Assembly: GCA_009780185.1 (NCBI GenBank)
Contig: WRAN01000010.1
Location: 6,450-70,449 of the forward strand
Origin: Defluviitaleaceae bacterium
GTDB taxonomy: Bacteria > Bacillota > Clostridia > Lachnospirales > WQUN01
DNA length: 64,000 bases
Direction of reading: 5' to 3'
The position numbers and the translations under genes are program-made. Each line of letters starts with the position of its first letter. Positions within the stretch are counted from its first letter, which is position 1. The notes under the pieces were generated by a model, which saw nothing but the letters and a program-made list of their open reading frames with translations, ran no database searches and was not told the DNA's origin. Of this stretch, positions 10,454-64,000 are shown piece by piece.

Positions 10454-10454
10454 C

Positions 10455-11305: not shown

Positions 11306-12874
11306 GTGGCATTTGAACTTGTAAGGGAGCAAGTCTTCCTAGATCAAAGCGTAGGTAGCGAGCAAACACAGATTATGCTTGAGGGGGATATAATAGTCCC
11401 AGACTCAAGGCCGGATATGGCTGTGCTTTTGCAGACAGAAGAAAAAATAATCATAGACCGTACAGAAGTAGGTGCAGACAGGGTCAACTTCGTAGGCCGG
11501 CTTAATATTTCCCTGCTATACATATCCAAAGGCCCAGAACAGCAAGCCTGCGCCGTAAATCTTACTCGCCAGATAGATGACTTTATCAATGTAGACGGAG
11601 TAACAAAGGATATGTGGGTCAATGCGAAAGCAGAAATCACCCATATAGATTACCGGATGCTAAATGACCGCAAAGTAAATTATCGTGCCATTGTAACCGT
11701 TAATATTAACGCAGAACGGTCGGATGCCCACGAAATGGTCGTACATATCCATGATGTGCCGGAAAATCAGCTCCTTAAAAATAATATTAATATCAACCGT
11801 ACAATAGAGCATAAACAGGAGCGCTTCCCTGTAAAGGACTCTCTGCTATTGCCATCCAGCAAGCCCAATGTACGGGAGATATTATTAGTTACTGCCAATA
11901 TCACCAACAGAGATATCCGTATCAATAATGGCAGGGTCAATTTAAGCGGTGAAATCTTAGTAACCACCTTATATCGCGGCGATACAGACGACAGCGTAAT
12001 AGAATTTGTAGAGAGCGAGATACCTTTCAATGGCCCAATAGATGTATCAGGCGCAAAGGATGATATGCTTGCAGATGTGCTTCTACAGGTAATGGATCAT
12101 CATGTAGTAGTACGCTCAGACGACGATGGAGAAGACAGAGTGCTGGAAATTGAAGTGTCTGTAGGGGTGCAGATGAAGGTCTACAGCACAGAAGTACTGC
12201 CTATTTTGGAAGATGCATATGTAATCAACCAGCGTCTGACTTTGGGTAAAACTCTAGTGCGCTACCCGCGGTTGGTATGTCTAAACCGCAACCAAGCACC
12301 TATTAAAGAAGTAGTAACATTAGGTGGCAATGCGCCCAGTATGCTTCAAGTGTTCCGCGTAAAAGGCAACGCCTACCTGGACGAAGTAAAAGTAATAGAG
12401 GATAAAGTGGTAGTAGAAGGGGCAATCACCACTGATATTCTATATGTAGCAGAAAGCGATTCGGCACCGCTGGGCAGCTTCCGCACGGTTATGCCATTTA
12501 GGCAGGTAATTGAAGCAAAAGGCGCACGCCCCAATATGAGAGTAAATGTAGATACTTCTATAGATCATGTGGCCTTTAGTATGCTAAGCGGCCAAGAAAC
12601 GGAAGTCCGGTTCCTTCTTACATTTAATACCCAAGTAATAGAAGAAGAAGAGACTCGGATTATACACAATATAGAGTTCGCGGATTTAGAGCCGGAAGCG
12701 CTGGCTAATATGGCCAGTATGACGGTGTATATTGTGCAGCATGGGGATAATCTTTGGAAGATTGCGAAGAAATATAATACCGCTATCGACGAGCTGCTGG
12801 CAGTCAACGATATCGAGCATCCCGGCAAGATTGTACCGGATCAAAAGCTTTTGATACTTAAAAAGGGTTTATAG
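11306..12874 (+). CDS. DUF3794 (SPOCS)-type repeat protein with a C-terminal LysM domain (spore-coat/cortex-associated type)
   Basis: GTG start behind AAAGGAGGG. C-terminal LysM: YIVQHGDNLWKIAKKYNTAIDELLAVNDIEHPGKIVPDQKLLI. Confidence 0.75.
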   Translation: MAFELVREQVFLDQSVGSEQTQIMLEGDIIVPDSRPDMAVLLQTEEKIIIDRTEVGADRVNFVGRLNISLLYISKGPEQQACAVNLTRQIDDFINVDGVTKDMWVNAKAEITHIDYRMLNDRKVNYRAIVTVNINAERSDAHEMVVHIHDVPENQLLKNNININRTIEHKQERFPVKDSLLLPSSKPNVREILLVTANITNRDIRINNGRVNLSGEILVTTLYRGDTDDSVIEFVESEIPFNGPIDVSGAKDDMLADVLLQVMDHHVVVRSDDDGEDRVLEIEVSVGVQMKVYSTEVLPILEDAYVINQRLTLGKTLVRYPRLVCLNRNQAPIKEVVTLGGNAPSMLQVFRVKGNAYLDEVKVIEDKVVVEGAITTDILYVAESDSAPLGSFRTVMPFRQVIEAKGARPNMRVNVDTSIDHVAFSMLSGQETEVRFLLTFNTQVIEEEETRIIHNIEFADLEPEALANMASMTVYIVQHGDNLWKIAKKYNTAIDELLAVNDIEHPGKIVPDQKLLILKKGL

Positions 12875-29837: not shown

Positions 29838-31166
29838 ATGAATACTTTAACTCTAGGCGAGAAACTCAAAGAAATAAGAACCGCACAGGGCTTATCTCAA
29901 GACCAAGTAGCAAGAGCCGTTAAAAAATACAAGTCTGATATCAGTCGCTTTGAAAGTGGGCAAGCAGAGCCAAACCAAGATGTGTTAGAGGCCATAAGGA
30001 AGTTTCTTAATATTAGCAATGCCCCGCTACTGCCTCCGGAGTTAGAATTATATAAAGACCGCCTGGCAATATGGGAAGAACTGCTGGACGCTAACAGAAA
30101 CGACGAAGCAAGAACCATGCAGCCAGAGATGGCGAGTATATTAACTCTACCATACGAATATGACCTAATTTTTCAATATATGATGCAAGAGAGCCGACTG
30201 CTGTTTAAAGAAAGAAACCTTTCTAGTATGGCAGCAAGCATGGAGGCTGCTGAGGCACTGCTGGATAATGTAAGCATTAAGGCTCTTTATTTGTATCACA
30301 ACAATAAAGGTTTACTTTACGATATTAATGGTAAATACAAAAGTGCGTTAAATCATTATTTAACGGCGGTTGATCTATTAGGCAGCGATAGGCCAGATTA
30401 CAGAATACTTATGAATATAGCTAGAGTGTATTGTCAGCTGGGCAAGCTGCATTGCGCTATCCGATATGCAGAGTGCGGTAAGCGCGAGTTTCGTGGGGAT
30501 CGAACTAACAAAGATGGAGTGAATTTGAACTTTCTTTTGGCTGATTTATATTCGCATGTTTATGAGTTTGATAAATCTGAGAAAATGTTTAATATTGTCA
30601 TTCAACATGCCAGAAGCATTGACGATAAATTTGCATTGGGTGCGGCTTTAGCCTGTTTAGGAAATATAAATCGGTTACGAAAAAATTATAGTGAAGCGTT
30701 GGGGCGGCTTAATCAGGGATTAGAGATTATAGAGAAACTTGTTATTACAAGCGACAACTGGCGTCGTGATGCCTACAGTCTCACCTATGCACTTTTGACC
30801 ATGATATTCGCTAAAGTGTCCTGTATCATGCGAATGAATAAATCCGATAAGAACAAAAAAGAGTGCCAGGAAGTTATTGCTTTAGGAAGGTCCTATGCCC
30901 AAGGAAATGAAACTTTAACAATTATAATCAATGCTATATCCCATTTAACAACCCTCGACAATCCTGAATCTACACGCTACATTGAGGATGTAGCAATACC
31001 ATACATTATAAACCACTTGCACAGCGAAGCATCTGAGAAAACCTTGGTTTTGGCATTTTGCAGAGAGCTTGTGGAACATTACGAAAAGAAAAAGGCCAAA
31101 ACCAAGCTGGCTAAAATTAAAGCAATAATGTGTGATATATATGAAGATATGTTTTTAGGGGGGTAG
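29838..31166 (+). CDS. XRE-family HTH transcriptional regulator with a TPR-like C-terminal domain (RNPP-like architecture)
   Basis: RBS AGGAGGAGG. Contains LGEKLKEIRTAQGLSQDQVARAV (HTH_3). Helical repeats with A/L/Y periodicity continue to the C-terminus. Confidence 0.8.
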   Translation: MNTLTLGEKLKEIRTAQGLSQDQVARAVKKYKSDISRFESGQAEPNQDVLEAIRKFLNISNAPLLPPELELYKDRLAIWEELLDANRNDEARTMQPEMASILTLPYEYDLIFQYMMQESRLLFKERNLSSMAASMEAAEALLDNVSIKALYLYHNNKGLLYDINGKYKSALNHYLTAVDLLGSDRPDYRILMNIARVYCQLGKLHCAIRYAECGKREFRGDRTNKDGVNLNFLLADLYSHVYEFDKSEKMFNIVIQHARSIDDKFALGAALACLGNINRLRKNYSEALGRLNQGLEIIEKLVITSDNWRRDAYSLTYALLTMIFAKVSCIMRMNKSDKNKKECQEVIALGRSYAQGNETLTIIINAISHLTTLDNPESTRYIEDVAIPYIINHLHSEASEKTLVLAFCRELVEHYEKKKAKTKLAKIKAIMCDIYEDMFLGG

Positions 31167-31327: not shown

Positions 31328-31422
31328 TGTAAAACTGCCGCATCCAGAAACCTTTTTTTATTGTGAAATCGTTTAGCAGTGGTTATCTTAAGCTCTATCT
31401 TTGTATAAAGGAGTGTTATTTG

Positions 31423-38662: not shown

Positions 38663-39847
38663 TTATAATAAGTCCTCATCTAACTCATCAACTTCTCGTT
38701 TTAAACCGATATTAAGCACCATTCCCATTGCAATCATATGCACCCAAATCATTGATCCGCCATAGGACATAAATGGGAAGGGCATACCTGTGGCAGGAAG
38801 CAGCCCCGTTACTACTCCTACATGTACAAAGGTCTCAAAGATTAGCATACCTGCAACCCCTGCTGCAATAAGCTTGCCCTGCATATCAATTGCTCTTAGT
38901 GCTATAAGGATGCATTTTACCACCATTATCAAGATTGCGCCAAGTAAAATTCCACTGCCTACAAAACCAAACTGCTCAGCAACTACAGAAAAGATTAAGT
39001 CGTTATGGGCAAAGATTAAATATATCTGATTATCCATAAATCCGCGGCCCGTCAGGCCTCCGGCAGCTATAGCTCTGCGGGATTCTTCTATTTGTCGCCA
39101 TTCATCAGAGCCTGGGATCGGGTATAGGTTGGTTCGTATGCGAGTGACTTGGTATTCCGCAAAAATTCTATATAAAAGTATAGGCTCTTCCCGCTGTAAA
39201 TCCAGCCAGAAAAACACCAAAATAGGTACAACTATAGCTACTCCAATAATGATATACCGCCATTTTAGACCAGCAGTAAACAGCACAACCAAAGATGCAA
39301 AAGTAATAACCAATGCCGCCGAAAGGCTAGGCTGGGTAGCAACAAAAAATACAGGCACAGCAATGGAAAATAGAACTAATCCTAGCCACAATATCTTATT
39401 ATAGCTATCCTTTTTTACTTCAAGAAATTTTGCCAAAAAAATAATCATAAATATCTTAGCAAACTCTGAAGGCTGCAAGCTAAGAACCCCAAGGCCTGGT
39501 ATAGGAATGGGAAGCCATCTAGCAGTATTGGTAGCAGGGTCAGGCCCCATAATAAACAGTGCCAAAAGCAGTGCCATCAAAACCCCATAAATTATTAAAT
39601 ACAGACGCCCTATAAGCCTATAGTCAATACACGCAAAGATAAGCATCAACACAGTGCCGGAGATTACATGTACCTGTTGTAAGCGCCACAGTCCCCCAAA
39701 GGCAAGTTGCTGTGCTACCGGCATACCGCTATGATTGGCTGAGGTATAAATCATAACAATGCCAAATACACTTACGGCAATTACCGTAAGTGCCAGAAGA
39801 TAGTCAAAGGACTTTAGCCCCTGCAAAATGGCATCTTTTCTTGTCAT
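38663..39847 (-). CDS. rodA: SEDS-family peptidoglycan glycosyltransferase RodA
   Basis: FtsW/RodA/SpoVE pattern (QPSEFAK, PFMSYGGS). Sits after minCDE. Confidence 0.9.
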   Translation of the reverse strand: MTRKDAILQGLKSFDYLLALTVIAVSVFGIVMIYTSANHSGMPVAQQLAFGGLWRLQQVHVISGTVLMLIFACIDYRLIGRLYLIIYGVLMALLLALFIMGPDPATNTARWLPIPIPGLGVLSLQPSEFAKIFMIIFLAKFLEVKKDSYNKILWLGLVLFSIAVPVFFVATQPSLSAALVITFASLVVLFTAGLKWRYIIIGVAIVVPILVFFWLDLQREEPILLYRIFAEYQVTRIRTNLYPIPGSDEWRQIEESRRAIAAGGLTGRGFMDNQIYLIFAHNDLIFSVVAEQFGFVGSGILLGAILIMVVKCILIALRAIDMQGKLIAAGVAGMLIFETFVHVGVVTGLLPATGMPFPFMSYGGSMIWVHMIAMGMVLNIGLKREVDELDEDLL

Positions 39848-52482: not shown

Positions 52483-53052
52483 GTGGTTTCCATCGAAGAT
52501 AGTAATATTCTTGAGTTATTTTGGACCAAGGATGAATCGGCTATTGAAATTTCTCGTAGAAGATATGGGAGGAGCTTGCATAAGGTGGCCTATAATATTT
52601 TAGCGGATAATCAGGATGCGGAGGAAGTTGTTAGTGATACATTGCATCGGGCTTGGGAGGCCATCCCTCCTAAGAAGCCGGAGTTTTTTGGGGCCTATCT
52701 TTTTAAGATTGCCCGGAACTTGTCACTAAAGCGCTGGCGGGCTGCTGGGGCGGCTAAGCGCGGCGGCTCTCAGGCTGACTTATTGCTTAGCGAACTTGGG
52801 GATGCGATACCTCTTAATGAGACTGTGGAGGATAGATTTGAATATTCGGAGACGGTTAAGGCTATCAATGATTGTCTTCGAGGGATGGGCGCCACTAACC
52901 GAGTGGTATTTGTCCGGCGGTACTTCTTTGGGGATAGTATCTCGGATTTGTGCAATCAATTTTATTTTAGTGAAAGTAAGATTAAGTCTATTTTGTACCG
53001 GGCGAGGCTAAATCTTCGTGGGCATCTTGAGAAAGAAGGGGTGATTATATGA
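52483..53052 (+). CDS. RNA polymerase sigma-70 family (ECF-type) sigma factor
   Basis: Region 2 (DAEEVVSDTLHRAWEAI, YLFKIARNLSLKRWR) and region 4 (VVFVRRYFFGDSISDLCNQF...SILYRARLNLR). GTG start with a weak RBS. Confidence 0.8.
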   Translation: MVSIEDSNILELFWTKDESAIEISRRRYGRSLHKVAYNILADNQDAEEVVSDTLHRAWEAIPPKKPEFFGAYLFKIARNLSLKRWRAAGAAKRGGSQADLLLSELGDAIPLNETVEDRFEYSETVKAINDCLRGMGATNRVVFVRRYFFGDSISDLCNQFYFSESKIKSILYRARLNLRGHLEKEGVII

Positions 53053-55223
53053 GTAATTCTGGATTAGAAAAAAGAGAAAAATTGCTTGCCTGTTTTGAGG
53101 GTATTGATGATGATATTGTAGCGGAAGCGGCTGAGGCTATTGGTGCTACGAAAAAATCCCGCCCTTATTGGTTATCATGGGGCAATGTTGCTGCTGTGCT
53201 TATTGGTGCAGTGGCGGTGAGCTGTGTTGTAATATTGGCATTCTTGCTTGGTAGCTCTGGGATAGGGGAAGTGCCGGCAGATAATGGAGATGGTTACTAT
53301 GAAGGCTCCCAGGTAGAGGAAACTCCAGCCCAGGAGACCCCAGTACCCATAGACTTGATAGAAAACGGTGATTTGCTGCCACTGCCTCGTGTCCATGAAT
53401 CACAGTTTCTTGCGATTCTTGAAGATGGACGCAGTCATATGACTGTAAATAATCCATGGCTTTATCATGAAAATGCTAGGCAGATAGATAATTTGCCCGT
53501 ATTCCGCCATCATACAGCAGTGATTAACGGGGAACTGACAGAAGATGATTCTGATGCAATCCGGAGAAATATTAATTATTTTAAGAATAGATTAATGGCT
53601 ATTGCCTCCGGCTTTCCTGTCTTGGACTTGGATGATGTTGACCCGCAAGAGTTTATGGATCTCTGGCCGGAGGGACTTACTGCATTTTTGCATTGGTCTG
53701 AGCCAAGCTTATTTGTACGTCTTACCCTCCCTGAAAGTATTATGGTGTTACCAATCGGGGCAGGCCTTGGTCACGGGGTAACAGATGAAGAGATCCAGGT
53801 AGCTATTGAGTATCTGGCCGAATTTTTTACTGTAGCCAACTCGATGGAAGTCCCTACTCTTGCCCAGGCAGAGCACTCACTTGATATGGGTGGCCCTAGG
53901 ATATACACGCGCCATAGATATTTTGATTCGGGGGGGAGTATCCTTGATGCTATCCTTGCTTTCAATTTTGAATGGGTAGAGGTTTTTACCTTTGAGCCGG
54001 AGCATACGCAGTGGGTGTGGATGTATATGTCTACATTCCCTCAAGGCAGATTCGAGTCGCTTCAATTGGGAAATTTCCCAATAATTACGTCAGAAGAAGC
54101 TCGCGAGATGCTTCTGCAAGGATATTTTATTTCCGAGCGCACAGATGCCGAATGGCCGGGCCGGGAGGCTGCTTTAGCATCTTCTGTGGAACTTGTATAC
54201 CGAAATGCTATGGACTCTGAAATAGTAATGCCATTTTATCGTTTTCTTATAGAAACTGACTTGCCTATATGGGCCGCGGATCAGCCTGGTGAATGGCGAG
54301 CCTATGCGCGGTATTATGTACCTGCCGTCCATCGGGATTATCTTGAACCTATCGCGCGGCGGGCAATGCCTGAACCGGATGCGCCGCCAACGGGTTCACG
54401 AGCTTTGCCTCCTCATATTTTTAGAGCAATCCAGGGGGAATGGTGGGCGCCGCTGCGTGTACCTCGTCATCAAGTGGAAGAGTTATGGCAGGAGGTTATG
54501 GATGATATTGGGGAGCTTGGGGTAGATGAAGCTTATCAATTTCGTACTGCATGCGGTAATTATGCTCTTATTACCGGTGCGCGTACCCTCATTGGCATAG
54601 AAGAGCTTAGGCGATACTACCCTCATTTGGATTTGCCTGAAAATGTGGGGGATTTTACGCTTCGTGAAGTCTTTGTAAATGACCGATCTGGCAATATGAT
54701 AATCTCGTATCGCCCTATGTCCCCTCTGGAGCAAATTTTTCATGGATTAGGGCTTTCGGAAGAAAATCCGCCTCCTGTGGGTGAGATTTTTACTCGTGAC
54801 TTATCTATAGAAGATACCAGTATTGCATCTGCTTTTTATGCTGTGTATGAAAATAGCGAAGGTGTGCAGGTGAGTTTAGGTGTGTCGGCTTTGTTTTTTG
54901 ATTTGTCGTCAGGGCTTCCTGATGGGTCTGGATTCTTGGATATGGGGGAATATGGGGAGATTCACTTCCCAGGGGATTCTGAGATTTATTATGCAGCTAT
55001 GTACCAACCCACAGACCCGTGGATGGGATTTGCTGTTGAACTTTGGTTTTTGGGCGGTTCTGTCAGCGATAGGATTAATTATTTAGATTTACGGTATAGC
55101 TATGATAGGATTAGTCACTTGTTTATCCCTGTACCTCGTGAGGATTTAGAGGAGCTGGTGCGGCTGTTTAATCCGGCGGCGCTTGCACTGGAGTATCAGT
55201 GGGATTTGATGCCTTGGCAGTAG
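53049..55223 (+). CDS. Putative anti-sigma factor: short cytoplasmic N-terminus, one TM, ~650-aa extracytoplasmic domain of unknown fold
   Basis: ATGA overlap with the sigma gene stop. TM is WGNVAAVLIGAVAVSCVVILAFLL. Confidence 0.6.
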   Translation: MSNSGLEKREKLLACFEGIDDDIVAEAAEAIGATKKSRPYWLSWGNVAAVLIGAVAVSCVVILAFLLGSSGIGEVPADNGDGYYEGSQVEETPAQETPVPIDLIENGDLLPLPRVHESQFLAILEDGRSHMTVNNPWLYHENARQIDNLPVFRHHTAVINGELTEDDSDAIRRNINYFKNRLMAIASGFPVLDLDDVDPQEFMDLWPEGLTAFLHWSEPSLFVRLTLPESIMVLPIGAGLGHGVTDEEIQVAIEYLAEFFTVANSMEVPTLAQAEHSLDMGGPRIYTRHRYFDSGGSILDAILAFNFEWVEVFTFEPEHTQWVWMYMSTFPQGRFESLQLGNFPIITSEEAREMLLQGYFISERTDAEWPGREAALASSVELVYRNAMDSEIVMPFYRFLIETDLPIWAADQPGEWRAYARYYVPAVHRDYLEPIARRAMPEPDAPPTGSRALPPHIFRAIQGEWWAPLRVPRHQVEELWQEVMDDIGELGVDEAYQFRTACGNYALITGARTLIGIEELRRYYPHLDLPENVGDFTLREVFVNDRSGNMIISYRPMSPLEQIFHGLGLSEENPPPVGEIFTRDLSIEDTSIASAFYAVYENSEGVQVSLGVSALFFDLSSGLPDGSGFLDMGEYGEIHFPGDSEIYYAAMYQPTDPWMGFAVELWFLGGSVSDRINYLDLRYSYDRISHLFIPVPREDLEELVRLFNPAALALEYQWDLMPWQ

Positions 55224-55234
55224 TATGTAAATAG

Positions 55235-55283
55235 AAAGCCGAACCTAGCCGACAAATGTTATCGGTGAGGCTCGGCTTTTTTT
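55235..55283 (+). terminator. Rho-independent terminator
   Basis: AAAGCCGAACCT ... AGGCTCGGCTTT followed by a T-run. Confidence 0.7.
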
Positions 55284-55284
55284 G

Positions 55285-55293
55285 TGATATAAT
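55285..55293 (+). promoter_or_regulatory. Extended -10 element ending 6 nt before the ATG of cassette B gene 1
   Basis: TGATATAAT lies 55285-55293 and the ATG at 55300. There is no Shine-Dalgarno sequence in between. Confidence 0.4.
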
Positions 55294-55299
55294 GGTTGT

Positions 55300-56472
55300 A
55301 TGAGATATATGGAAAAGTTATTTTGTCCCCATAGAGCAAAGCCATTTACAATAAGTAAGCGTAAAGTCAAACTTGACAGCAATATAAAGCGGTGGAGATT
55401 TGAGTTTGATACAGGCAACGGACAACTTACTGGAAGGCAATTGGCACAGCTATATAGTGCAGTTAGCACATTTTTGGATAAGTACAACTCAGGCATGTAT
55501 ATATTTGCTTTGAATATGAGAACTTTTGACTTTCAGGACAAAAATGTCTATATTTTTTTGGAACTGTTGGCATACTATATTTTAAAGCATGGGAAGTTTA
55601 CTTTTGAAGTCTTTTTTGATCAACCTGCGTTTTACATGTTGGAGTCTGTGGGATTTCAAAATACAGCGTTGTATAGGTTTATGATGAATCAGGGGATATT
55701 AAAATATATTGAAAATAAAACGGATTTCATAAGCTTTTACGAAAATCCTCAACATTTGACCGATAAATGGTACCGGAGAGTCTTGAACAGTGATGCCATT
55801 GCAGTGGGAAATATATCAGGTCAGATTGCAGAAGAAGTCGAATCCTTTCTAAAAAGGTATGATATTCCTCACTCTACGACGGTAAACACATATAGTGTAG
55901 TACTTGAGCTGATATCGAACGCAAAACATAATGATGGAGACTGTATATTAGATATTGACATCTGTAATAATGTTATTAATATGTCATTTATCAACCTTTT
56001 TGATGGTAGGATGTTTGATAAGCTGGGTTTCATGTATAGAGATGATAAGCTTTTTCAGAATGTTCAAGAAAAGATACACATGGCTATTGGGTACCATAGT
56101 TTACATTTTGGAGATATGTATACAGAGGATGATTTTTACTTTATATCTACCTTCCAGGAGGGAATCACAACTCGTCTCGAGCCAAGTGGAGGCACAGGAC
56201 TTACAACAGTTGTTAATGCAATTGCGGAAGAAGATGAGAATGCCTACTCCTATGTATTAAGTGGCAATAACCTATTGTTTTTGCGCAAAAGCTTCTTAGG
56301 CGATGGTGGAAGTATTGTAGGATTTAATAAAACAAACGATTATTTTAGAGATATACCCGAAAGGAGTATAATTGATAGGTGTCAGCTATACATACCCGGA
56401 GTGGTATTTCAACTAGTATTTAGTTTTGGGGTGAGTGATAATGGAAAAAGAAAAAATTATGCTGGAGTTTGA
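55300..56472 (+). CDS. GHKL-superfamily ATPase-like protein, cassette B gene 1 (390 aa)
   Basis: N-box-like VVLELISNAKHND. G2-like PSGGTGLTTV. No obvious His-kinase dimerisation/phosphoacceptor region. Very AT-rich. Confidence 0.6.
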   Translation: MRYMEKLFCPHRAKPFTISKRKVKLDSNIKRWRFEFDTGNGQLTGRQLAQLYSAVSTFLDKYNSGMYIFALNMRTFDFQDKNVYIFLELLAYYILKHGKFTFEVFFDQPAFYMLESVGFQNTALYRFMMNQGILKYIENKTDFISFYENPQHLTDKWYRRVLNSDAIAVGNISGQIAEEVESFLKRYDIPHSTTVNTYSVVLELISNAKHNDGDCILDIDICNNVINMSFINLFDGRMFDKLGFMYRDDKLFQNVQEKIHMAIGYHSLHFGDMYTEDDFYFISTFQEGITTRLEPSGGTGLTTVVNAIAEEDENAYSYVLSGNNLLFLRKSFLGDGGSIVGFNKTNDYFRDIPERSIIDRCQLYIPGVVFQLVFSFGVSDNGKRKNYAGV

Positions 56473-56737
56473 AAACAAGTATTCAAAGATTGGTGACTTC
56501 GACTACGGAAAAGATATATACGAGCAACAAGCAAAAGACCGTGTTGTTTTCGATGGCGAAAATATTATCGCGTTTCCTGACTACGTAGACTTCGTATCTC
56601 CATCTTTTATTCAAGGATTTATAGCTGTACCTATTGGCAATGTAGGAAAAGAGAATGTCTTAGAGTACATTAGCTTTGAATCCCCGCGAAGTGAAGTAGT
56701 TAAGCAGATTTACAACGGCTTACGCAGAGCTATGTGA
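56441..56737 (+). CDS. STAS-like (DUF4325-type) small protein, cassette B gene 2
   Basis: ATG lies behind GGGGTGAG and overlaps the gene 1 end. VVFDGENIIAFPDYVDFVSPSFIQGFI resembles the DUF4325 'LDFxGVxxxsxSFxxEf' core. Confidence 0.5.
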   Translation: MEKEKIMLEFENKYSKIGDFDYGKDIYEQQAKDRVVFDGENIIAFPDYVDFVSPSFIQGFIAVPIGNVGKENVLEYISFESPRSEVVKQIYNGLRRAM

Positions 56738-56747
56738 GGATATCGTT

Positions 56748-57257
56748 ATGGAGTATGGGGAGCTTGTAGGGGTAGTTATAAATGCATCAGAGGGTACGTC
56801 TTTAATGTCATATATCCATATGATAGGCTCGCTAATGTGGATGGGGCTTTCTGCTATAGCAATGATTATTTTCTCTGTGAAAAATTATAAGATGAGCGAG
56901 TCTTATAATAAAAAGACATTGAAGAATCGTGTTTTTGATAGGGTCTTTCAAAAGGTGATTGAGGATAGTCTAATTAAGCTGGCTGATATAATTCCTGCAA
57001 TCTCAGATTTTAATTTTGACGAATTTAAAGATGTTCTGGAGTCTTTTACTGTGGGTATAGAGGTATATAAGTATCATGATAAGCCTTTTTATGAAGAAAT
57101 TTGGGATTTAGTTTATAAGATAACAGACGATATTATCAAAATTGAAAACGCTACAAGTTCGTCTAGTAAATCAAAATGGTTTGCATCTTTGGAAAGTCAT
57201 ATTCAAAAAATATTTGACGTTATTGAAAGGTATTGTACAGACTTAGATGCGAATTAG
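56748..57257 (+). CDS. Hypothetical single-pass membrane protein, cassette B gene 3 (169 aa)
   Basis: TM is IHMIGSLMWMGLSAIAMIIFSV, followed by a helical soluble domain. No family motif recognised. Confidence 0.6.
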   Translation: MEYGELVGVVINASEGTSLMSYIHMIGSLMWMGLSAIAMIIFSVKNYKMSESYNKKTLKNRVFDRVFQKVIEDSLIKLADIIPAISDFNFDEFKDVLESFTVGIEVYKYHDKPFYEEIWDLVYKITDDIIKIENATSSSSKSKWFASLESHIQKIFDVIERYCTDLDAN

Positions 57258-57280
57258 ATAACACTATTTTTGCACAAAGT

Positions 57281-57315
57281 AAGCCCCCGTGAGGTTCGTC
57301 TCGCAGGGGCTTTTA
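57281..57315. terminator. Bidirectional terminator between convergent genes
   Basis: AAGCCCCCGTGAG ... CTCGCAGGGGCTTTT. Confidence 0.65.
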
Positions 57316-57335
57316 TATTGTATGATAGAGATCAA

Positions 57336-59039
57336 TTAATGATTAACGGCATTAATATCCCGCTTATTATAGAAGTAAAACCCGGCAGCGGTAAGGGCAA
57401 TTGCAATCATGACCTTAACTGCCATAGTAATCCAGTTAATCTCTTCAAGTGGCAGAAGCGGCACCCATCCAAAGGGTGTTGTACGGGCTACCCAGCTTGG
57501 AAAGATATCTATCCGGCCAAACATATCCATAAAGAAGGAGTAGCCAAGGTATCCCCAGATGAAGCCGGTTGCTTTGGGAAGTAAGCCTACTAGAAGGACG
57601 GTTATGCCCACCATAATCCACAGGGCGGGTACAAATACTAAAGCTGACCTTAGTACGAAGCTGATGGACAAGTCACCTGGGTTTACTAACGTTGTTGTGG
57701 CTACAGCGTACATTCCAAGGGCTACAGCGGCTTGTAATAGTATTGCCGATATCATGGCAATGGCTACAAACCCGGCTAGGTACTTAGTGCGGCTTACGGA
57801 GGCGGCTAGTACCAGCTCTGTACGGATGTCTTTTTCCTCTGATTTGGCCTTTGTGGTGAACACAATAAGGGCGGCTAGGCCCATTACTGCCATCATTCCG
57901 TTGATAAAGCCTGAGAACATTTCTGCTACGGTGACGCCTGCCGCACTTAGTGCTTGGTTCATAATGGCAATGGCTTCATCTACAGGCAAGCCTTCTAATA
58001 CGCTAATGTCCATAAAAGGGCCTAGTATCAGGGTCTGGTACATTTCATTGCTGGCGACAAAGGATTCTATATCTGCAAGTACTGCGCCATATGTGCCGCC
58101 TAGGATAAACATGCCTACGACTATCATGATTATTGTAAAGCGCTGGAGCCGGAAGGTTAAACCGGGGGCAGATTTTAGTAAGAAACCGCCATCTGCTTTG
58201 CCTGGTTTTGCTGGGATCATGCCCTGATCTATGTCTCTGATGGAGGTCAGGTAGAAGGCTGCTGCCGCTACAACAGCAGTTGTGCCAAGCATTATCCAAA
58301 TGGGCCACCAGTTGTTTTGAATATATACTTGAGTGCGCAATATAAGCCCGAGTGGGCTGATTAGTGCAACCCATTCTAAATCTGTATTCATGTCGCCTAT
58401 AGCCCGCACTAAGTACAGAACTATCAGTGTGACGAAGGAATAGGCCATAACGCTGCGAGTGATTGCGGATAGCTGGCAAAGCAGTGCTGTAAGTGCCGCA
58501 AATACAAGACCGGTAACGCCCAGGCCAACACCCCATAACATTGAGCCTGCAAGGCACATGTATGTGTCTCCCACCATTCCGCCTAGGTACATAGCAAGTC
58601 CCATGGTAATGGCTAAGATGCCGTTGATAATCAAGGCTGTAATCATGGCGGCATTAATATTGGCAAGCCTTCCTAGAGGAAGAGAGCGCACAACTTCGTA
58701 GCGCCCCTTTTCCTCGTCTGCCCTGGTGTGGCGTACTATTAAGAAGATGTTCATAATGCCTACCGTTAGCGCAACGAATACAAACATTAGGTTGGCATAT
58801 ACTGCCCCAAATGTAGGATTTTCTGCGGCAAAGACCGGGCCGGCCATAGCTACCATTGCAGGGTTTTCAAATACGCTTATAAGTTCTAATCTGGCGTAAT
58901 AATCCAGAGCTGTGTACATGCCCGGTACCAGCCCGGCAACAATTATTAACAGCAGCACAATCCATACGGCGGAGGTGATGCGTTCCCGCCTTAGCATAAA
59001 GCGGGTTAGCTGCAAACTATTTTCGAATAATCCTTTCAT
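57336..59039 (-). CDS. ABC-2-type exporter permease (about 12 TM segments, fused double module)
   Basis: 567-aa polytopic protein directly downstream of the ATPase gene. Confidence 0.8.
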   Translation of the reverse strand: MKGLFENSLQLTRFMLRRERITSAVWIVLLLIIVAGLVPGMYTALDYYARLELISVFENPAMVAMAGPVFAAENPTFGAVYANLMFVFVALTVGIMNIFLIVRHTRADEEKGRYEVVRSLPLGRLANINAAMITALIINGILAITMGLAMYLGGMVGDTYMCLAGSMLWGVGLGVTGLVFAALTALLCQLSAITRSVMAYSFVTLIVLYLVRAIGDMNTDLEWVALISPLGLILRTQVYIQNNWWPIWIMLGTTAVVAAAAFYLTSIRDIDQGMIPAKPGKADGGFLLKSAPGLTFRLQRFTIIMIVVGMFILGGTYGAVLADIESFVASNEMYQTLILGPFMDISVLEGLPVDEAIAIMNQALSAAGVTVAEMFSGFINGMMAVMGLAALIVFTTKAKSEEKDIRTELVLAASVSRTKYLAGFVAIAMISAILLQAAVALGMYAVATTTLVNPGDLSISFVLRSALVFVPALWIMVGITVLLVGLLPKATGFIWGYLGYSFFMDMFGRIDIFPSWVARTTPFGWVPLLPLEEINWITMAVKVMIAIALTAAGFYFYNKRDINAVNH

Positions 59040-59050
59040 GTTGGCCCCCT

Positions 59051-59938
59051 TTAGCTAGTTGCCCCGTAGTGGCGCATGAATAACTCTTCCAGTGACGGTG
59101 GTGTGCTTTCTAGTTTTGTGATGCCGAAGGGCTGGAGATGATTGATTACTATGCCCATTTTGTCTGTGTTTACTTGGAATTTTACGCTATAGCCTTCTTT
59201 GGCTATGTCGTATACTCCCTCTATGTTTTCTAGGCCTTCGATAGGGCGCTCTGTGGATACTGTCATTGTGTAGCTGGTTAGGTGCCTAAGGTCGTCTAGT
59301 GTGCCTACTTCTACTAGCTGGCCTTCGCGGATTATGCCCACTCTGTCACATAAGCGCTCTACTTCCGACATTATATGGCTGGAGAGAAATACACCTTTGC
59401 CTTTGTTTTTTTGCTCCATTACGCAGTCTTGGAAGACTTGCTCCATTAGTGGGTCTAGGCCGGATGTTGGCTCGTCTAGGATGTATAGGTCTACGTCTGA
59501 GGCGAAGGCGGCTACTAGGGCTACTTTTTGTCGGTTGCCTTTGGAATAGGTGCGGCATTTTTTTGTTGGGTCTAGGTTGAAATCGCGGATTAGGCGCTCG
59601 CGCAGGGCTTTGTCGTGGGAGCCGCGTAGACGTACGAATAGGTCTATTACTTCGCCTCCGGTTAGGTTTGGCCATAGGTTTACATCGCCGGGGACGTAAG
59701 CTATGCGCTTGTGGATTTCTACTGCGTCTTTCCATGCGTCTTTACCGAAGACTTTTACTTGGCCTGAAGAGGCTTGTAGGATGCCTAGTAGGGTGCGTAT
59801 GGTGGTGGATTTGCCGGCTCCGTTGGGGCCGATGTAGGCGAAGACTTCCCCTTCTTTTATTTCCAGGTTTATGTCTTTGAGTGCTTGGAACTTACCGAAG
59901 TACTTGTTTAGGTTTTTGATTTCTACGCTTAAACTCAT
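59051..59938 (-). CDS. ABC transporter ATP-binding protein (DrrA/ABC-2 type)
   Basis: Walker A GPNGAGKST. Signature YSKGNRQKV. Walker B LYILDEPTSGLD. Confidence 0.92.
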   Translation of the reverse strand: MSLSVEIKNLNKYFGKFQALKDINLEIKEGEVFAYIGPNGAGKSTTIRTLLGILQASSGQVKVFGKDAWKDAVEIHKRIAYVPGDVNLWPNLTGGEVIDLFVRLRGSHDKALRERLIRDFNLDPTKKCRTYSKGNRQKVALVAAFASDVDLYILDEPTSGLDPLMEQVFQDCVMEQKNKGKGVFLSSHIMSEVERLCDRVGIIREGQLVEVGTLDDLRHLTSYTMTVSTERPIEGLENIEGVYDIAKEGYSVKFQVNTDKMGIVINHLQPFGITKLESTPPSLEELFMRHYGATS

Positions 59939-59955
59939 TTTTATTCCTCCTAATC

Positions 59956-60103
59956 AATGAGCAAAAATCGCGATGCTTTAACGCGTTTTTGCGAATGGTT
60001 TTTGCCGAAGGCAAAAAGATTACATTTTATCGAGCAAAAATCGCGATGATTTAACGCGTTTTTGCGAATGGTTTTTGCCGAAGGCAAAAGGTTACATTTT
60101 ATA
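59956..60103 (-). repeat. Repeat family R1, locus B: two abutting 74-bp units between tetR and the ABC ATPase gene
   Basis: The GAGCAAAAATCGCGATG... unit starts at 59959 and 60033 (period 74). The distal unit overlaps the last codons and stop of tetR (60092-60094). Confidence 0.85.
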
Positions 60104-60733
60104 GAAGCATTTTCTCAAAATGCTTAGATGTTCTTTGAATTCTTCTAGGAAAGCATCATAGTTTTTTATTACTGAGCTTATATTGTCGTGGCCTGCCTGG
60201 TCTACTTTGCTGTGAGAAAAGCCGTTTACTGCCCACATTATTATTTCTATGGCTTTTTCAGGTGGGATATCTTCTCTGAAGAGGGTTTTATCGCAGTGGG
60301 CGTATACGTCAGCTATTATTTTGCCTTGTATTTGGTGGAATTTCTTTAAATGCTCTTTGGCGGGGCAGTCTTTATCGTCTACATATACTCGGGTTAGAAA
60401 TTCGAATATTGTGGGGTAACGTTGGGATAGCTCTAGTTTTAGAAGGCTTAGTTGCCAGATGCTATCTAGGATATCTGGCTGATGGGTGTTGATTAGGTCT
60501 ATAAATTCTGTTTGGACGATGTTTACGGCGTTGTCTACCAGGAAGTTGTATAAGTTCTCTTTGGTTCCGAAGTAGTGGAATAGTAGACCTTTGGATATGC
60601 CTGCCTCCCGGACTATATTATCTGTGGAGGCTTTTTTGAAGCCGTTTAGGAACTCCGTCATTGCGGCGTTTAGGATACGCTCACGTTTTTCTTCTTCTAT
60701 TGAATGGAATTTATCGTATTGAGGGGCACTCAT
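60092..60733 (-). CDS. TetR/AcrR family transcriptional regulator
   Basis: HTH: STDNIVREAGISKGLLFHYFGTKENLY. Confidence 0.9.
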   Translation of the reverse strand: MSAPQYDKFHSIEEEKRERILNAAMTEFLNGFKKASTDNIVREAGISKGLLFHYFGTKENLYNFLVDNAVNIVQTEFIDLINTHQPDILDSIWQLSLLKLELSQRYPTIFEFLTRVYVDDKDCPAKEHLKKFHQIQGKIIADVYAHCDKTLFREDIPPEKAIEIIMWAVNGFSHSKVDQAGHDNISSVIKNYDAFLEEFKEHLSILRKCFYKM

Positions 60734-60750
60734 TAAACCACTCTCCTTTC

Positions 60751-60802
60751 ATTGACTGACTCGATGGGTCAATTATAATTGTATTGACTGCATAAGTCAA
60801 TA
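60751..60802 (-). promoter_or_regulatory. Consensus sigma-A promoter of tetR overlapped by two palindromic operator candidates
   Basis: The minus strand reads TTGACT (60795-60800)-17 nt-TATAAT (60772-60777). Palindromes are TATTGACTGCATAAGTCAATA (60783-60802) and ATTGAC-N11-GTCAAT (60751-60773). Confidence 0.65.
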
Positions 60803-60820
60803 GCAAAATAAAAAAATTTT

Positions 60821-60856
60821 AAAAGCCCAGAATCGAATGATATTCTGGGCTTTTTG
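60821..60856. terminator. Orphan bidirectional terminator hairpin in the tetR / hisH-like divergent intergenic region
   Basis: AAAAGCCCAGAAT-CGAATGAT-ATTCTGGGCTTTTT. No annotated gene ends here. Confidence 0.6.
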
Positions 60857-60995
60857 TAGGCGTTTATCATGGACTAACGTAATATTATACATTAACTTTC
60901 GGAAAGCCCCTGGTTGCAAAAAAAGAAGCAAAACTGGACAATTTTGCCGATTTATCATACATTATGTAAAAGTTATTTATTGGAGACGGATAAAG

Positions 60996-61610
60996 ATGAT
61001 TAGAATAGTCAGTACCAATGGCACGAATTATACGACCGTGCTGCGTGAAGTCCAGCTTCTTGGCTATAAGCCCAAAATGCTTAAAAGCGTCAAGGATGTG
61101 CCTAAAACTACCCATATTATTTTATCAGGCAATGATGAGCCTACTTTTATGCTTAAAGGCCTGAAAAGTCAGAATCTGCTGCCTAAATTGGAAAAAGTGG
61201 TTAAGCATCGCAATGTGCTTATTTTGGTAATGGGGCGGTGTATGCAACTGCTTTATGAAGGTATAGATGGCCCCAAGGGGTGGATACCTGGGACGGGTTG
61301 GCTATCTGGGCATGTTGTGCCTTTTGCGTATGGATGTGAGCCTGCTAAGGGGGCGCATGCTGTTGAGTTTGTGAAGGATGTTTGTGGTGCTAGTGATGGT
61401 ATGTATCGTTTTGATATGCCCTTTCAGGTGAAGGATGGATATGAAGGGGATTTGTGGGGTGAGGCTAGGCTTTCTGTGCCTGATCCTTTTCCTGCGGCTG
61501 TGCATCATAGGAATATTTATGGTGTTCAGTTTAATTTGCTTAGGAGTGGGGTGCAGGGGCGGGAGTTGCTTCGAGGGTTTTTGAATCGGGTGCCGGATAG
61601 TGGGGATTGA
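60996..61610 (+). CDS. HisH-like class I glutamine amidotransferase homologue with a degenerate catalytic triad
   Basis: ATG lies behind GGAG. MIRIVSTNGTNYTTV..., LILVMGRCMQLLYE and IYGVQFNLLRSGVQGRELLRGF align with the HisH blocks GICLGMQLL and FQFHPEKS. The ORF-track start at 60837 begins inside the terminator hairpin. Confidence 0.65.
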   Translation: MIRIVSTNGTNYTTVLREVQLLGYKPKMLKSVKDVPKTTHIILSGNDEPTFMLKGLKSQNLLPKLEKVVKHRNVLILVMGRCMQLLYEGIDGPKGWIPGTGWLSGHVVPFAYGCEPAKGAHAVEFVKDVCGASDGMYRFDMPFQVKDGYEGDLWGEARLSVPDPFPAAVHHRNIYGVQFNLLRSGVQGRELLRGFLNRVPDSGD

Positions 61611-61630
61611 TGGGGTGGGTGGTGGATTTA

Positions 61631-61657
61631 GCGGTTTTGATGATAATGACGAAAGCG
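61631..61657 (+). repeat. Repeat R3, copy 2 (27-nt exact match)
   Basis: GCGGTTTTGATGATAATGACGAAAGCG is identical to 50132-50158. It lies 50 nt upstream of GTG 61707. Confidence 0.85.
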
Positions 61658-61706
61658 GTCGCGTACTGTGTTTATGGGCTTTTATAGATAGGAAGGGGCG
61701 GAAGCT

Positions 61707-64000
61707 GTGAGTGAAAAAAGGGATTTTTTCATCAGCTACAACAAAAATGATAAGCAGTGGGCAAAATGGATTGCGGCTGTTCTTGAGCAAAGTGGTGGAT
61801 ATACTTGTTATATCCAAGCATGGGATTTTCGAAAAGGTGGAAATTTTGTGTTGGATATGCAAAAGGCCCTAGTTAATTCGGAACGGGCTATAGCCGTGTT
61901 GTCTCCAAGTTTTATGGATTCTGAATATTGCCAGGCAGAGTGGGCGGTGGAATTTACGAAAGACCCTGCCAGTAAAAATCGGTTGCTCATACCTGTAAGG
62001 GTGTATGATTTTAAGCCTGAAGGCCTGTTTGCAAGCATAACTTATATTGACCTTGTTGGTGTAGAAGAAAAAGAGGCAGAAAAACAGCTTTTAAACGGTG
62101 TTGATACCAATGATATTCCCAGGCCTCGCCCTATCTTCCCGGGAACTAGCTCTGCTTCCCTCCCTGCGTTTCCTGGAGCCATGCCAGGGTGGACTCCTAG
62201 CGGCATGTCATCTCTTCCGTTTATGCAAAATCAATACTTTACCGGAAGGGATAAAGTATTTGAAGATATTTGCGTCGGATTTGAAAGCGGGAAGACTATA
62301 GCATTAACCCAAACACTTGCGGGAATGGGTGGATTGGGCAAGACCCAAACAGCGTTAGAGTATGTCTATAGATATGCATATAAATATAAGTGTGTGTGGT
62401 GGGTTATGGCTGAAACAGAGTCAACCGTATTGGCATCATATAAGAATTTTGCGACTAAAATGGGGCTAATACCCAAAGAGCAGCAGGATGATGAGTTAAT
62501 ACTCCAAGCTGTTTTAGATTGGATGGACTCTGAAAGTAAATGGTTGTTTATCTATGATAATGTGAATGGTATCTCTGCGAGCACTCCATGGTTGCCGAGA
62601 AATAATAGAGGCAATATATTAATTACTACTAGAAGTAATCATGTACCTTTTGGCAAAAGGGTTGATATTGATGTTTTTACAGAGGAAGAAGCCATTCACT
62701 TTTTAGAAAGCCGTACCGGGCTGGACAAAGGCCTCGAAAACGCGGCGGTTCTTGCCAAGCGCTTAGGGTATCTTCCGCTGGCTTTGGAGCAAGCGGCGGC
62801 ATATATACAAACCAATGGGGATACATATGTAGATTATATCTACTTGCTTGAAAGCCATGGGTTGAAAGTATTGGATGATATGTATGGTGTAAACCACTAT
62901 GATAAGCCTCTTGCAGTAACTATGGAAATCTCCATTGAAAAGATAAACAAGGATGAAGCACGGGATTTACTGTATTTGTGTGCTTATATGGCGCCAGAAG
63001 ATATTGATGATGCATTGTTTCGCGAAAACGCGGAGCTGTTGCCTATGCCTTTGAGTGAAGCGTTGAAAAACCGCTTAATCGGCAATGAAGCCTGGAGGCA
63101 ATTGACTCAGTATTCTCTTTTGAAAAGGCAAGACGATGGTAATGGGTATTCCATGCATCGTCTGCTTCAGGAAGTGGTGCGGAATAAAATAGGACTTGAT
63201 AAGCAATGGGCGTTGTCCTGCTTATCCCTTTTCAGAAAAATATATTATTTTGAGTATGGAGATATTGTCTCTCGCGACTCATTTATAAGTCTAACTCCAC
63301 ATGTGGAAGCATTTTTAAATAACGCTATAATTTTAACTGATGATGAGGACAAAAAAGGCATAGCTAATTTATACCATAAGGGTGGCTTTGGATTTTCTTA
63401 TCAAGGACACTATAAACGAGCGCAGGAGTGGTATAAGAAGGCTTTAGATATCATTGAAAATGTGTTAGGCATAGACCACCCATCCACCGCCACAACCTAC
63501 AATAACATAGCGAGTGTATATAATAGTCAGGGAGAATACGCAAAGGCGCTGGAGTGGTATAAGAAGGCTTTAGATATCATTGAAAATGTGTTAGGCAAAG
63601 ACCACCCATACACCGCAACAACTTACAATAACATAGCGTTAGCTTATTCTAGTCAGGGAGAATACGCAAAGGCGCTGGAGTGGAATAATAAGGCTTTAGA
63701 TATCAGAGAAAAGGTGTTAGGCGAAGACCATCCAGACACCGCAACAACCTACAATAACATAGGGGTAGTTTATTCTAGTCAGAGAGAATACGTAAAGGCG
63801 CTGGAGTGGAATAATAAGGCTTTATATATCAGAGAAAAGGTGTTAGGCAAAGACCATCCAGACACCGCAACAACCTACAATAACATAGCACTAGTTTATT
63901 CTAGGCAGGGAGAATACGCAAAGGCACTGGAGTGGAATAATAAGGCTTTATATATCAGAGAAAAGGTGTTAGGCAAAGACCATCCAGACACTGCAACAAC
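61707..64000 (+). CDS. TIR - NB-ARC (STAND NTPase) - TPR protein (bacterial NLR-like); the 3' end lies outside the window
   Basis: GTG start behind GGAAGGGG. TIR: FFISYNKNDKQWAKWI..., AVLSPSFMDSEYCQAEW. NB-ARC: GMGGLGKTQ (P-loop), WLFIYDNV (Walker B), ILITTRS, GYLPLALEQAAAYI. At least 5 TPR_12-like 42-aa repeats follow. It is absent from the ORF track because no stop is reached. Confidence 0.9.
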   Translation, partial: MSEKRDFFISYNKNDKQWAKWIAAVLEQSGGYTCYIQAWDFRKGGNFVLDMQKALVNSERAIAVLSPSFMDSEYCQAEWAVEFTKDPASKNRLLIPVRVYDFKPEGLFASITYIDLVGVEEKEAEKQLLNGVDTNDIPRPRPIFPGTSSASLPAFPGAMPGWTPSGMSSLPFMQNQYFTGRDKVFEDICVGFESGKTIALTQTLAGMGGLGKTQTALEYVYRYAYKYKCVWWVMAETESTVLASYKNFATKMGLIPKEQQDDELILQAVLDWMDSESKWLFIYDNVNGISASTPWLPRNNRGNILITTRSNHVPFGKRVDIDVFTEEEAIHFLESRTGLDKGLENAAVLAKRLGYLPLALEQAAAYIQTNGDTYVDYIYLLESHGLKVLDDMYGVNHYDKPLAVTMEISIEKINKDEARDLLYLCAYMAPEDIDDALFRENAELLPMPLSEALKNRLIGNEAWRQLTQYSLLKRQDDGNGYSMHRLLQEVVRNKIGLDKQWALSCLSLFRKIYYFEYGDIVSRDSFISLTPHVEAFLNNAIILTDDEDKKGIANLYHKGGFGFSYQGHYKRAQEWYKKALDIIENVLGIDHPSTATTYNNIASVYNSQGEYAKALEWYKKALDIIENVLGKDHPYTATTYNNIALAYSSQGEYAKALEWNNKALDIREKVLGEDHPDTATTYNNIGVVYSSQREYVKALEWNNKALYIREKVLGKDHPDTATTYNNIALVYSRQGEYAKALEWNNKALYIREKVLGKDHPDTAT
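63426..64000 (+). repeat. Tandem 126-bp DNA repeats (4.5 or more copies) encoding the 42-aa TPR units
   Basis: GAGTGG(T/A)ATAA(G/T)AAGGCTTTA(G/T)ATATC... recurs at 63426, 63552, 63678, 63804 and 63930. Neighbouring units differ at only a handful of positions. Confidence 0.9.

Follow-up and report, generated by a model that had tools for sequence, protein, structure and literature searches.

An intact TIR-NB-ARC-TPR gene of a Defluviitaleaceae bacterium, candidate for a single-gene NLR-like defence receptor

A stretch of 64,000 nt from a Defluviitaleaceae bacterium (contig WRAN01000010.1, positions 6,450 to 70,449, forward strand), hereafter called the window, carries at its 3' edge a gene for a protein in which a TIR domain is followed by an NB-ARC nucleoside triphosphatase (NTPase) and an array of tetratricopeptide repeats (TPRs). 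The analysis of this gene indicates that its product is probably, though by no means certainly, an NLR-like receptor of abortive infection encoded by a single gene, which would cleave NAD+ after ligand-driven oligomerisation. The modules and their conserved motifs, the fold matches, the intact and solitary gene and the recurrence of its relatives beside defence genes were all observed in this analysis.

The gene starts with a GTG codon at 61707-61709 on the plus strand, and translation of 61707-64000 yields 764 stop-free codons up to the window edge. The deduced N-terminus, VSEKRDFFISY..., aligns with homologue starts of the form M..K(R/K)DFFISY. A reading made earlier from the letters of this DNA (the sequence-only reading) had proposed an open reading frame (ORF) of more than 764 codons that was missing from the mechanical ORF list. 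This ORF was confirmed, and it is absent from the list only because it overruns the window. The motifs quoted in that reading (FFISYNKND, SPSFMDSEYCQAEW, GMGGLGKTQ, WLFIYDNV, ILITTRS and GYLPLALEQAAAYI) were all found in the translation. In a search of protein collections, a protein of 864 aa (P0001) was 100% identical across all 764 window-encoded residues. It is encoded at 8875-11469 of a 45-kb JGI metagenome contig (L001), whose bases 1-11168 correspond to window positions 52833-64000 with 99.98% identity (2 mismatches). The part that the window lacks is the final 100 codons, comprising two and a half TPR units and a short tail. As this contig of 99.98% identity carries the complete 864-aa ORF, the gene is intact, without frameshift or truncation, and a pseudogene could be ruled out. 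The downstream disruption by which the sequence-only reading would have been refuted was looked for and not found, the ORF on the matching contig being uninterrupted. A promoter and terminator scan around the gene gave a number of sites not above chance.

The N-terminal module was recognized by Pfam as TIR_2 (residues 7-129, E = 2.9e-31, 108.9 bits). FFISYNKND corresponds to residues 7-15 and SPSFMDSEYCQAEW to residues 66-79, and the family motif was found to be S-x-x-F/Y-x-x-S-x-Y-C-x-x-E, ending in Glu78 (codon at 61938-61940). Conservation was evaluated by aligning 48 full-length homologues, whose identities were 33-63%. Glu78 was invariant in this set, and also in a TIR-only subset of 17 of its sequences, confirming the TIR domain with a retained Glu that had been read from the letters. 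The residue at -4 from it (Y74 in Y74-C-Q-A-E78, a W/Y-x-x-x-E form) is Y, F or W in most of the 48 homologues. A conserved Glu is required for the NADase activity of TIR domains, yet it is insufficient alone. Glu78 is the putative catalytic residue, as judged from the plant TIR motif S..Y..S.WC..E and the alignment to TLR TIRs rather than from a residue-level superposition on an NADase. In PDB profile searches the domain gave matches with E from 8e-14 to 1e-3, the TLR TIRs being the best, and the enzymatic TIRs of TIR-STING, AbTIR, Cat1, TIR-APAZ, Roq1, RPP1 and RUN1 were matched as well. Besides the catalytic Glu, TIR NADases require contact between TIR domains (cited in PMC9806590).

A Pro/Ser/Gly-rich linker connects the TIR domain with the NTPase. 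An AlphaFold2 model of the full-length protein, built on the 48-sequence alignment, showed a mean predicted local distance difference test score (pLDDT) of 88.3 and a predicted template modelling score of 0.75. Only residues 136-166, inside the linker, fell below a pLDDT of 50, while the TIR segment was mostly at 72-90. The linker of the sequence-only reading therefore holds and is predicted to be disordered, with the refinement that conserved family motifs were detected in this region (PRxRPxFPG ... LPFNNLP ... YFTGR), where P145, P156, N169 and N175 are conserved among the 48 homologues.

The NB-ARC domain was detected by Pfam at residues 203-382 with 28.5 bits (cutoff 23.5), and the same scan of the protein gave no NACHT match. 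In the Walker A motif GMGGLGKT (residues 206-213, or 206-214 for GMGGLGKTQ) Gly208 is invariant, and Lys212 and Thr213 are present in at least 90% of the 48 homologues. The Walker B motif is LFIYD284-N (within WLFIYDNV, residues 279-286), with an invariant Asp284 that is followed by Asn and not by Asp, as in the AfsR-type bacterial NB-ARCs. Thr307 of the sensor-1/RNBS-B motif TTR (ILITTRS, residues 304-310) is likewise invariant. A GLPL-like motif, GYLPLAL, spans residues 354-360 within GYLPLALEQAAAYI (354-367). The winged-helix domain that follows matched DUF7779 (residues 411-496, E = 1.4e-12), and in its MHD-like motif His484 and Gln488 are invariant among the 48 homologues. By its Walker A, Walker B, TTR, GLPL and MHD-type His motifs, as well as by profile and fold, the protein is a STAND NTPase of the NB-ARC/AP-ATPase clade, and the NB-ARC NTPase with a P-loop that had been proposed was thereby corroborated.

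The C-terminal module of the full-length protein consists of seven TPR units of 42 aa (residues 566-859), for which Tandem Repeats Finder gave a period of 126 nt, 6.1 copies and 89% matches. The repeat region matched Pfam TPR_12 (E = 2.7e-88) and TPR_10. In the PDB sequence search, the TPRs of kinesin light chains (KLC) 1 and 2 were retrieved with E of 1e-42 to 1e-48 and a KLC-like TPR of Podospora (PDB 4y6c) was also among the matches, in agreement with the kinesin-light-chain type assigned at the outset. The central units are 84-94% identical in DNA and many codons are the same even at synonymous sites, indicating recent duplication or gene conversion. Among the homologues the number of units, obtained by a simple motif count, varies from 1 to 13, and the mean identity of units within one protein reaches 0.81. 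Entropy across the homologues peaked at positions 5, 12, 16, 18, 38, 41 and 42 of the unit, where the replacements are clustered. The pooled ratio of nonsynonymous to synonymous changes (pN/pS) among the units was 0.57 and a few central pairs reached 1 or more, a sample too small to claim positive selection.

Repeats of the TPR, ANK and WD types with high internal conservation have been described for fungal NLRs (Dyrka et al. 2014, PMC4986451). It is conceivable, if doubtful, that a subclade rich in gut-anaerobe metagenomes diversifies its recognition by ongoing unequal recombination or gene conversion among near-identical 126-nt TPR cassettes, which would parallel in bacteria what the repeats of fungal NLRs do. 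Under the same tentative proposal, this subclade would represent an NB-ARC branch of antiphage pattern-recognition receptors that is closer in sequence to the NB-ARCs of plant TIR-NLRs than to Avs/bNACHT.

Fold comparisons agreed with the domain assignments. The best whole-chain Foldseek match of the full-length model was PH0952 of Pyrococcus horikoshii (6mfv; E = 2.3e-13, 723 aligned columns), followed by KLC TPR domains. In a second model, of residues 1-500 and built on 13 sequences, the TIR came out poorly (pLDDT about 45), and the model served for the NB-ARC fold search only. With it, NRC3, NRC2, RPP1, WRR4A, Roq1, CED-4 and Apaf-1 were retrieved at E from 4e-13 to 5e-10. The PDB profile search with TIR plus NB-ARC gave Roq1 as the best match (1.5e-11) and AfsR (8k60) at 1.6e-8.

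Table 1. Coordinates of the gene, its modules and one further feature of the window
Feature	Residues	Positions	Strand	Remarks
Shine-Dalgarno-like AGGAAGGGG		61690..61698	+	8 nt upstream of the GTG start; read from sequence
TIR-NB-ARC-TPR gene	codons 1-764 of 864	61707..64000	+	overruns the window edge; full ORF L001:8875-11469
TIR domain	5-132	61719..62102	+	box 1 DFFISY; BB-loop WDFRKGGNF (39-47); putative catalytic Glu78 in YCQAE
Pro/Ser/Gly-rich linker	133-174	62103..62228	+	predicted disordered; family-conserved motifs at its ends
NB-ARC and helical domain	175-400	62229..62906	+	YFTGR, Walker A, Walker B, sensor-1/RNBS-B ILITTR, GLPL-like GYLPLAL
Winged-helix domain DUF7779	401-496	62907..63194	+	MHD-like YSMH484RLLQEVV
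Helical spacer	497-565	63195..63401	+	AlphaFold2 helices 500-565, pLDDT >90
Kinesin-light-chain-type TPR sensor		63402..64000	+	42-aa (126-nt) units; units 1-4 and part of unit 5 in the window
SipL/SPOCS-domain protein with C-terminal LysM		11306..12874	+	spore-coat morphogenesis type

The genomic surroundings of the homologues were also inspected. No conserved partner gene was found across nine homologue loci and the locus of this copy. As the neighbours are not conserved, a self-contained single-gene system is argued for. Genes of defence or of mobile elements were found next to several homologues. P0013 (L005/L006) is accompanied by two SIR2_2 proteins, Mrr_cat and PIN toxins, and P0051 (L089) by a complete start of a BREX system (BrxA, BrxB, PglX and BrxC). 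P0006, as encoded at L002 in a sample other than that of L001, is located at a prophage border (Bro-N, terminase), between UvrC/MurB and a prophage-like region, and P0009 (L004) lies near RhuM, GIY-YIG and many small ORFs. The homologue of Streptomyces sp. 378 (L081:2323-5043, minus strand) has an MzaC-like Z1-domain protein as its neighbour. On the conjugative plasmid pPAES01 of Prosthecochloris (L091:1-8872), the homologue is surrounded by a serine recombinase, a restriction endonuclease and a diversity-generating retroelement (Avd, reverse transcriptase and FGE-type targets). As a separate observation, giant Tubulin_2 (PF13809) proteins are encoded a few kb from homologues at two independent loci from metagenomes or metagenome-assembled genomes (MAGs) (L087:1160-6457 and L090:1-2560), and at one of them a VWA protein adjoins the Tubulin_2 gene.

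Taken as a receptor, the protein would work as follows. The seven-unit TPR array would be the sensor, and its most likely ligand is a protein from a phage or another mobile element that invades the cell. Binding would free the ADP-bound, autoinhibited switch formed by the NB-ARC and winged-helix domains, and nucleotide exchange would then allow oligomerisation into a resistosome-like ring or a filament. In such an assembly the flexibly tethered N-terminal TIRs could meet and form composite active sites centred on Glu78, which would cleave NAD+. The resulting NAD+ depletion would halt or kill the infected cell ahead of the multiplication of the invader. We infer the ligand, the oligomerisation, the NADase chemistry and the defence phenotype by analogy with plant TIR-NLR (TNL) resistosomes, Avs, TIR-STING, SPARTA and Cat1 (PMC9806590, PMC13581612). 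For bacterial STANDs with TPR sensors, the recognition of phage proteins followed by oligomerisation has been reported (Lee 2026, PMC13581612). A defence receptor, as claimed by the sequence-only reading, is the interpretation best supported, if indirectly, by the solitary gene, the defence-gene neighbours of the homologues and the hypervariable TPR positions; what did not fit that claim is the position of this copy outside a defence island.

Several further results weigh against the proposed function. The flanks of this copy are ordinary chromosomal genes of Clostridia type, PADLOC gave no model match for the eight flanking proteins that were scanned, and the annotated neighbours showed neither integrase nor phage-type domains. 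When 121 ORFs neighbouring the homologues at 17 genome loci were scanned with PADLOC, Dsr2 (twice), MADS mad2/3/8, AriA, ThsA, NsnA, PD-T4-2 and others were named, in favour of defence, but this census is only suggestive because it was done without a control set. No phage-borne homologue was retrieved from 50,697 phage genomes. By PDB sequence comparison, the TIR domain is matched best by non-enzymatic TLR TIRs, in which the Glu is kept too. Two residues of this copy could alter its activity, namely Lys43 in the BB-loop (61833-61835), which replaces the Pro of the family consensus W-D-F-R-P-G, and Asn287 (62565-62567), three positions after the Walker-B Asp, which is unique among the 48 close homologues (44 of them have Asp or Glu). 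In the searched literature, no experimental study of the TIR-NB-ARC-TPR clade was found, and the 2026 survey of STANDs tested families other than this clade, mostly enterobacterial ones (PMC13581612). Finally, PADLOC-DB 2.0 contained no Avs, bNACHT, NLR or TIR-NLR model that matched at E<0.01. The matches obtained were weak and to single domains only (TPR at 1.7e-10, Aga_TIR at 2e-9, PDC-S66, bSEFIR and SAVED_TIR). Membership in Avs, bNACHT or TIR-NLR systems was rejected on this ground and on that of the NTPase, which is NB-ARC/AP-ATPase.

As the main alternative, the same receptor might use its TIR domain as a signal generator, making a messenger of the cyclic ADP-ribose type or another NAD-derived one for a separate effector, in a Thoeris-like manner and without depleting NAD+ itself. 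Bacterial and plant TIRs can indeed make signalling nucleotides, as cited in PMC9806590 and PMC10022894, weak NCBIfam and PADLOC matches to Thoeris ThcB4 and SAVED-TIR models were obtained, and ThsA-like proteins are encoded near some homologues. However, the Thoeris-type matches are in the range of E 1e-2 to 1e-3 and cover single domains only, and the characterised single-gene TIR fusions (TIR-STING, TIR-APAZ and Cat1) work via NAD+ depletion. This alternative is disfavoured, and was considered unlikely, because no conserved partner gene stands beside the homologues or this copy. A role outside defence was judged rather improbable. The protein could then be a switch of regulated cell death or of self/non-self recognition tied to development, for instance sporulation, or a TIR scaffold devoid of enzymatic activity. 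This would suit the housekeeping and sporulation-type genes around this copy, the resemblance of its TIR to adaptor-type TIRs of TLRs by sequence and the shifts of STAND clades between defence and non-defence roles (PMC13581612). Against it stand the conservation of Glu78 and of the aromatic residue at -4 across the family, the defence and mobile genes that recur next to the homologues, and a hypervariability of the repeats that is typical of arms-race receptors.

That this copy is functionally decaying, Asn287 and Lys43 having disabled the NTPase cycle or the assembly of the TIRs, is very improbable. The uniqueness of Asn287 and the loss of the consensus Pro would favour decay, but the 864-codon ORF is undisrupted and the core motifs are all kept. 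In addition, the acidic residue at Walker-B +3 is likewise missing from about 24% of the sequences in a broader homologue set, for which reason Asn287 was not taken as a sign of decay, and other homologues carry a non-Pro residue at position 43 too. The remaining alternative is that the protein is a true FxsT, i.e. the TPR/NB-ARC part of a conflict system composed of FxSxx-COOH peptide processing and vWA-MoxR, acting with the modified peptide. The NCBIfam model NF040586 (FxSxx-COOH system tetratricopeptide repeat protein, FxsT) was matched with 374.4 bits, above its cutoff of 300, the best stretch aligning residues 174-496 with model positions 4-332. Relatives are labelled fxsT by NCBI, whose pipeline would likewise name this protein FxsT, and in actinobacteria a TIR-AP-ATPase-TPR gene is located downstream of the FxSxx peptide-processing system (PMC7159879). 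Nevertheless, neither a radical-SAM ORF of at least 250 aa with CxxxCxxC nor a credible small ORF ending in FxSxx was present in the 64-kb window and 10 kb downstream, where the latter search gave only scattered stubs in non-coding frames. The flanking genes that were examined within about 10 kb on each side encode no radical-SAM, metallopeptidase, vWA or MoxR domain. The Streptomyces homologue, which scores 748 bits with NF040586, and the gene annotated 'fxsT' on pPAES01 adjoin defence genes and not FxsB. Since these two lack the FxSxx context, the model detects a widespread NB-ARC-TPR core and not the system. Membership in the FxSxx-COOH system was consequently rejected in spite of the score, the genomic context being absent here and at both homologue loci, and this identity is extremely improbable.

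In order to estimate the abundance of the family, residues 1-500 (TPRs excluded) were searched against 1.84 billion representative proteins in 50%-identity clusters. Relatives of the TIR plus NB-ARC core were found in 5,149 clusters at E <=1e-30 and in 19,477 at <=1e-10. Collinear alignment from near residue 3 to near residue 496 was seen for most of the top 150 matches, which therefore share the TIR-NB-ARC fusion. Species-representative genomes of bacterial phyla and archaea contained at least 578 relatives. The hosts include Clostridiales, Tannerella, Fibrimonadales, cyanobacteria, Chlorobi, Chloroflexi, actinomycetes, myxobacteria, Planctomycetota and, among the archaea, Methanosarcinales and Methanothrix. 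Gut and digester metagenomes, termite-gut MAGs among them, are the main source of the closest relatives (45-63% identical), and the actinobacterial relatives are only about 30% identical. Plasmid-borne homologues amount to 155 records, mostly from Streptomyces. P0006 (896 aa, 62% identical) is encoded by a second TIR-NB-ARC-TPR gene (locus L003) in the same JGI sample as L001 (3300010369), and could be a paralogue within one organism or belong to a relative of it. For TIR-AP-ATPase(NB-ARC)-TPR proteins, Aravind, Koonin and co-workers have predicted a role as effectors of the conflict or apoptosis-like type (e.g. Kaur et al. 2020, PMC7159879). The protein is a further member of this long-recognised and very common bacterial group, and its architecture has already been described. 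The view of the sequence-only reading that it belongs to a known class and is not novel was supported by the Pfam architecture and by the roughly 5,100 clusters at E <=1e-30.

The immediate neighbours of the gene are, upstream, a divergent HisH-like amidotransferase, a TetR regulator and an ABC transporter and, downstream on L001, an A_ENA protein (L001:11763-12470, past the window end), glycosyltransferases and IleRS. The window further encodes PheS/PheT, a penicillin-binding protein, FtsW/SpoVE (38663-39847) and the SipL(SPOCS)-LysM spore-coat protein of Table 1. Owing to the SipL/SPOCS-LysM, FtsW/SpoVE and A_ENA genes, the host looks like an endospore-forming bacterium of Clostridia type. 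By its gene content as a whole, PheS/PheT and the penicillin-binding protein included, the window resembles part of the chromosome of such a bacterium rather than a mobile element. The HisH-like class-I glutamine amidotransferase gene occupies 60837-61610 (plus strand), with a probable start at Met54, about 60996. It matched TIGR01855 at E = 2.7e-10, the score of 40 bits falling far short of the cutoff of 105, and gave no Pfam match at 1e-3. Its nucleophile motif reads M-G-R-C-M-Q instead of the usual G-x-C-x-G-M-Q. This gene was ruled out as a partner, as it adjoins none of the examined homologues.

Other features of the window were recorded. An intergenic repeat of about 75 nt is present in two tandem copies each at 59955-60112 (plus strand) and 23898-24060 (minus strand), one of these loci being the divergent TetR/ABC-transporter intergenic region. 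Its core, AACGCGTTTTTGCGAATGNTTTTTGCCGNAGGCAA, had 3 matches against a chance expectation of 0. There are two hairpins in every unit, AAAAATCGCG...CGCGTTTTT and TTTTTGCC-GAAG-GGCAAAAA, and the repeat may be a REP/terminator-like element. An RNPP-like regulator with HTH_3 and TPR (29838-31166, plus strand) is followed by ORFs of 1249 aa (31363-35112) and 536 aa (35269-36879), neither of which had a Pfam match at 1e-5. A sigma factor of the extracytoplasmic function (ECF) type (52483-53052, plus strand) overlaps the start of a 724-aa ORF by 4 nt, and ORFs of 390, about 100 and 169 aa come next, up to 57257. These four ORFs gave no Pfam or PADLOC match, and the region 52483-57257 may be an envelope cluster under sigma/anti-sigma control. 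Scans for tRNAs and Rfam families (gathering threshold) over the whole 64 kb yielded zero matches.

The locus itself is ordinary. The gene adds one intact and fully sequenced example of the bacterial NB-ARC branch of NLR-like receptors, the branch that comes closest to plant TIR-NLRs and Apaf-1/CED-4 both by sequence and by fold. A tractable member of this branch would allow one to ask whether resistosome-type assembly of NB-ARCs with TIR activation is older than the eukaryotes, and whether specificity is set by cassette-like TPR arrays. The only mildly new angle is that an array of near-identical, cassette-like TPRs might serve a gut-anaerobe subclade as a means of diversification. For annotation, it is relevant that the NCBIfam name 'FxSxx-COOH system' is given even where no such system is found nearby.

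Avs and bNACHT are antiphage STANDs (Gao 2020 and 2022; Kibby 2023). The similarity noted by the sequence-only reading is valid for the working logic and not for membership. As in Avs (AVAST) and bNACHT systems, one gene encodes an N-terminal effector (sometimes TIR or SIR2 in those systems), a STAND NTPase and a C-terminal TPR-like sensor (PMC13581612). The NTPase is of NACHT or Avs clade in those systems and NB-ARC/AP-ATPase here. Binding of a phage protein leads there through oligomerisation to cell death, a course that is proposed for the present protein too. With the bacterial and archaeal TIR-AP-ATPase-TPR group (PMC7159879), the three modules are identical and collinear, and thousands of relatives are spread across phyla. 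This copy differs in coming from a low-GC spore-former and a gut-metagenome-rich subclade, with no FxSxx, radical-SAM or vWA-MoxR partner found.

PH0952 (6mfv) resembles the protein in combining NB-ARC, winged helix and TPR sensor within a single chain, although it has 641 residues instead of 864 and 17% sequence identity. Regulators of the AfsR/SARP type also have TPRs and a homologous NB-ARC, in which the Walker B is of the D-N form too (8k60 as above; NF053617 at 8.7e-14), but they carry an N-terminal DNA-binding SARP domain and activate transcription, while a TIR occupies the N-terminus here. The plant TNPs (TIR-NBARC-TPR, PMC9806590) have the same TIR, NB-ARC and TPR architecture, a likeness of domain order, and the similarity of bacterial and plant TNPs is confined to the NB domain (PMC9806590). 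In plant TIR-NLRs such as Roq1, RPP1 and WRR4A, the TIR likewise precedes an NB-ARC that bears the Walker A, TTR, GLPL and MHD-type motifs. Their sensor is LRR/PL in place of a TPR array, and their Walker B reads DDVW where D-N-x-(D/E) is found here. With the fungal NLRs (PMC4986451), the protein has in common repeat units that are near-identical in DNA, a few hypervariable positions and a variable number of units, in this case in a bacterial host.

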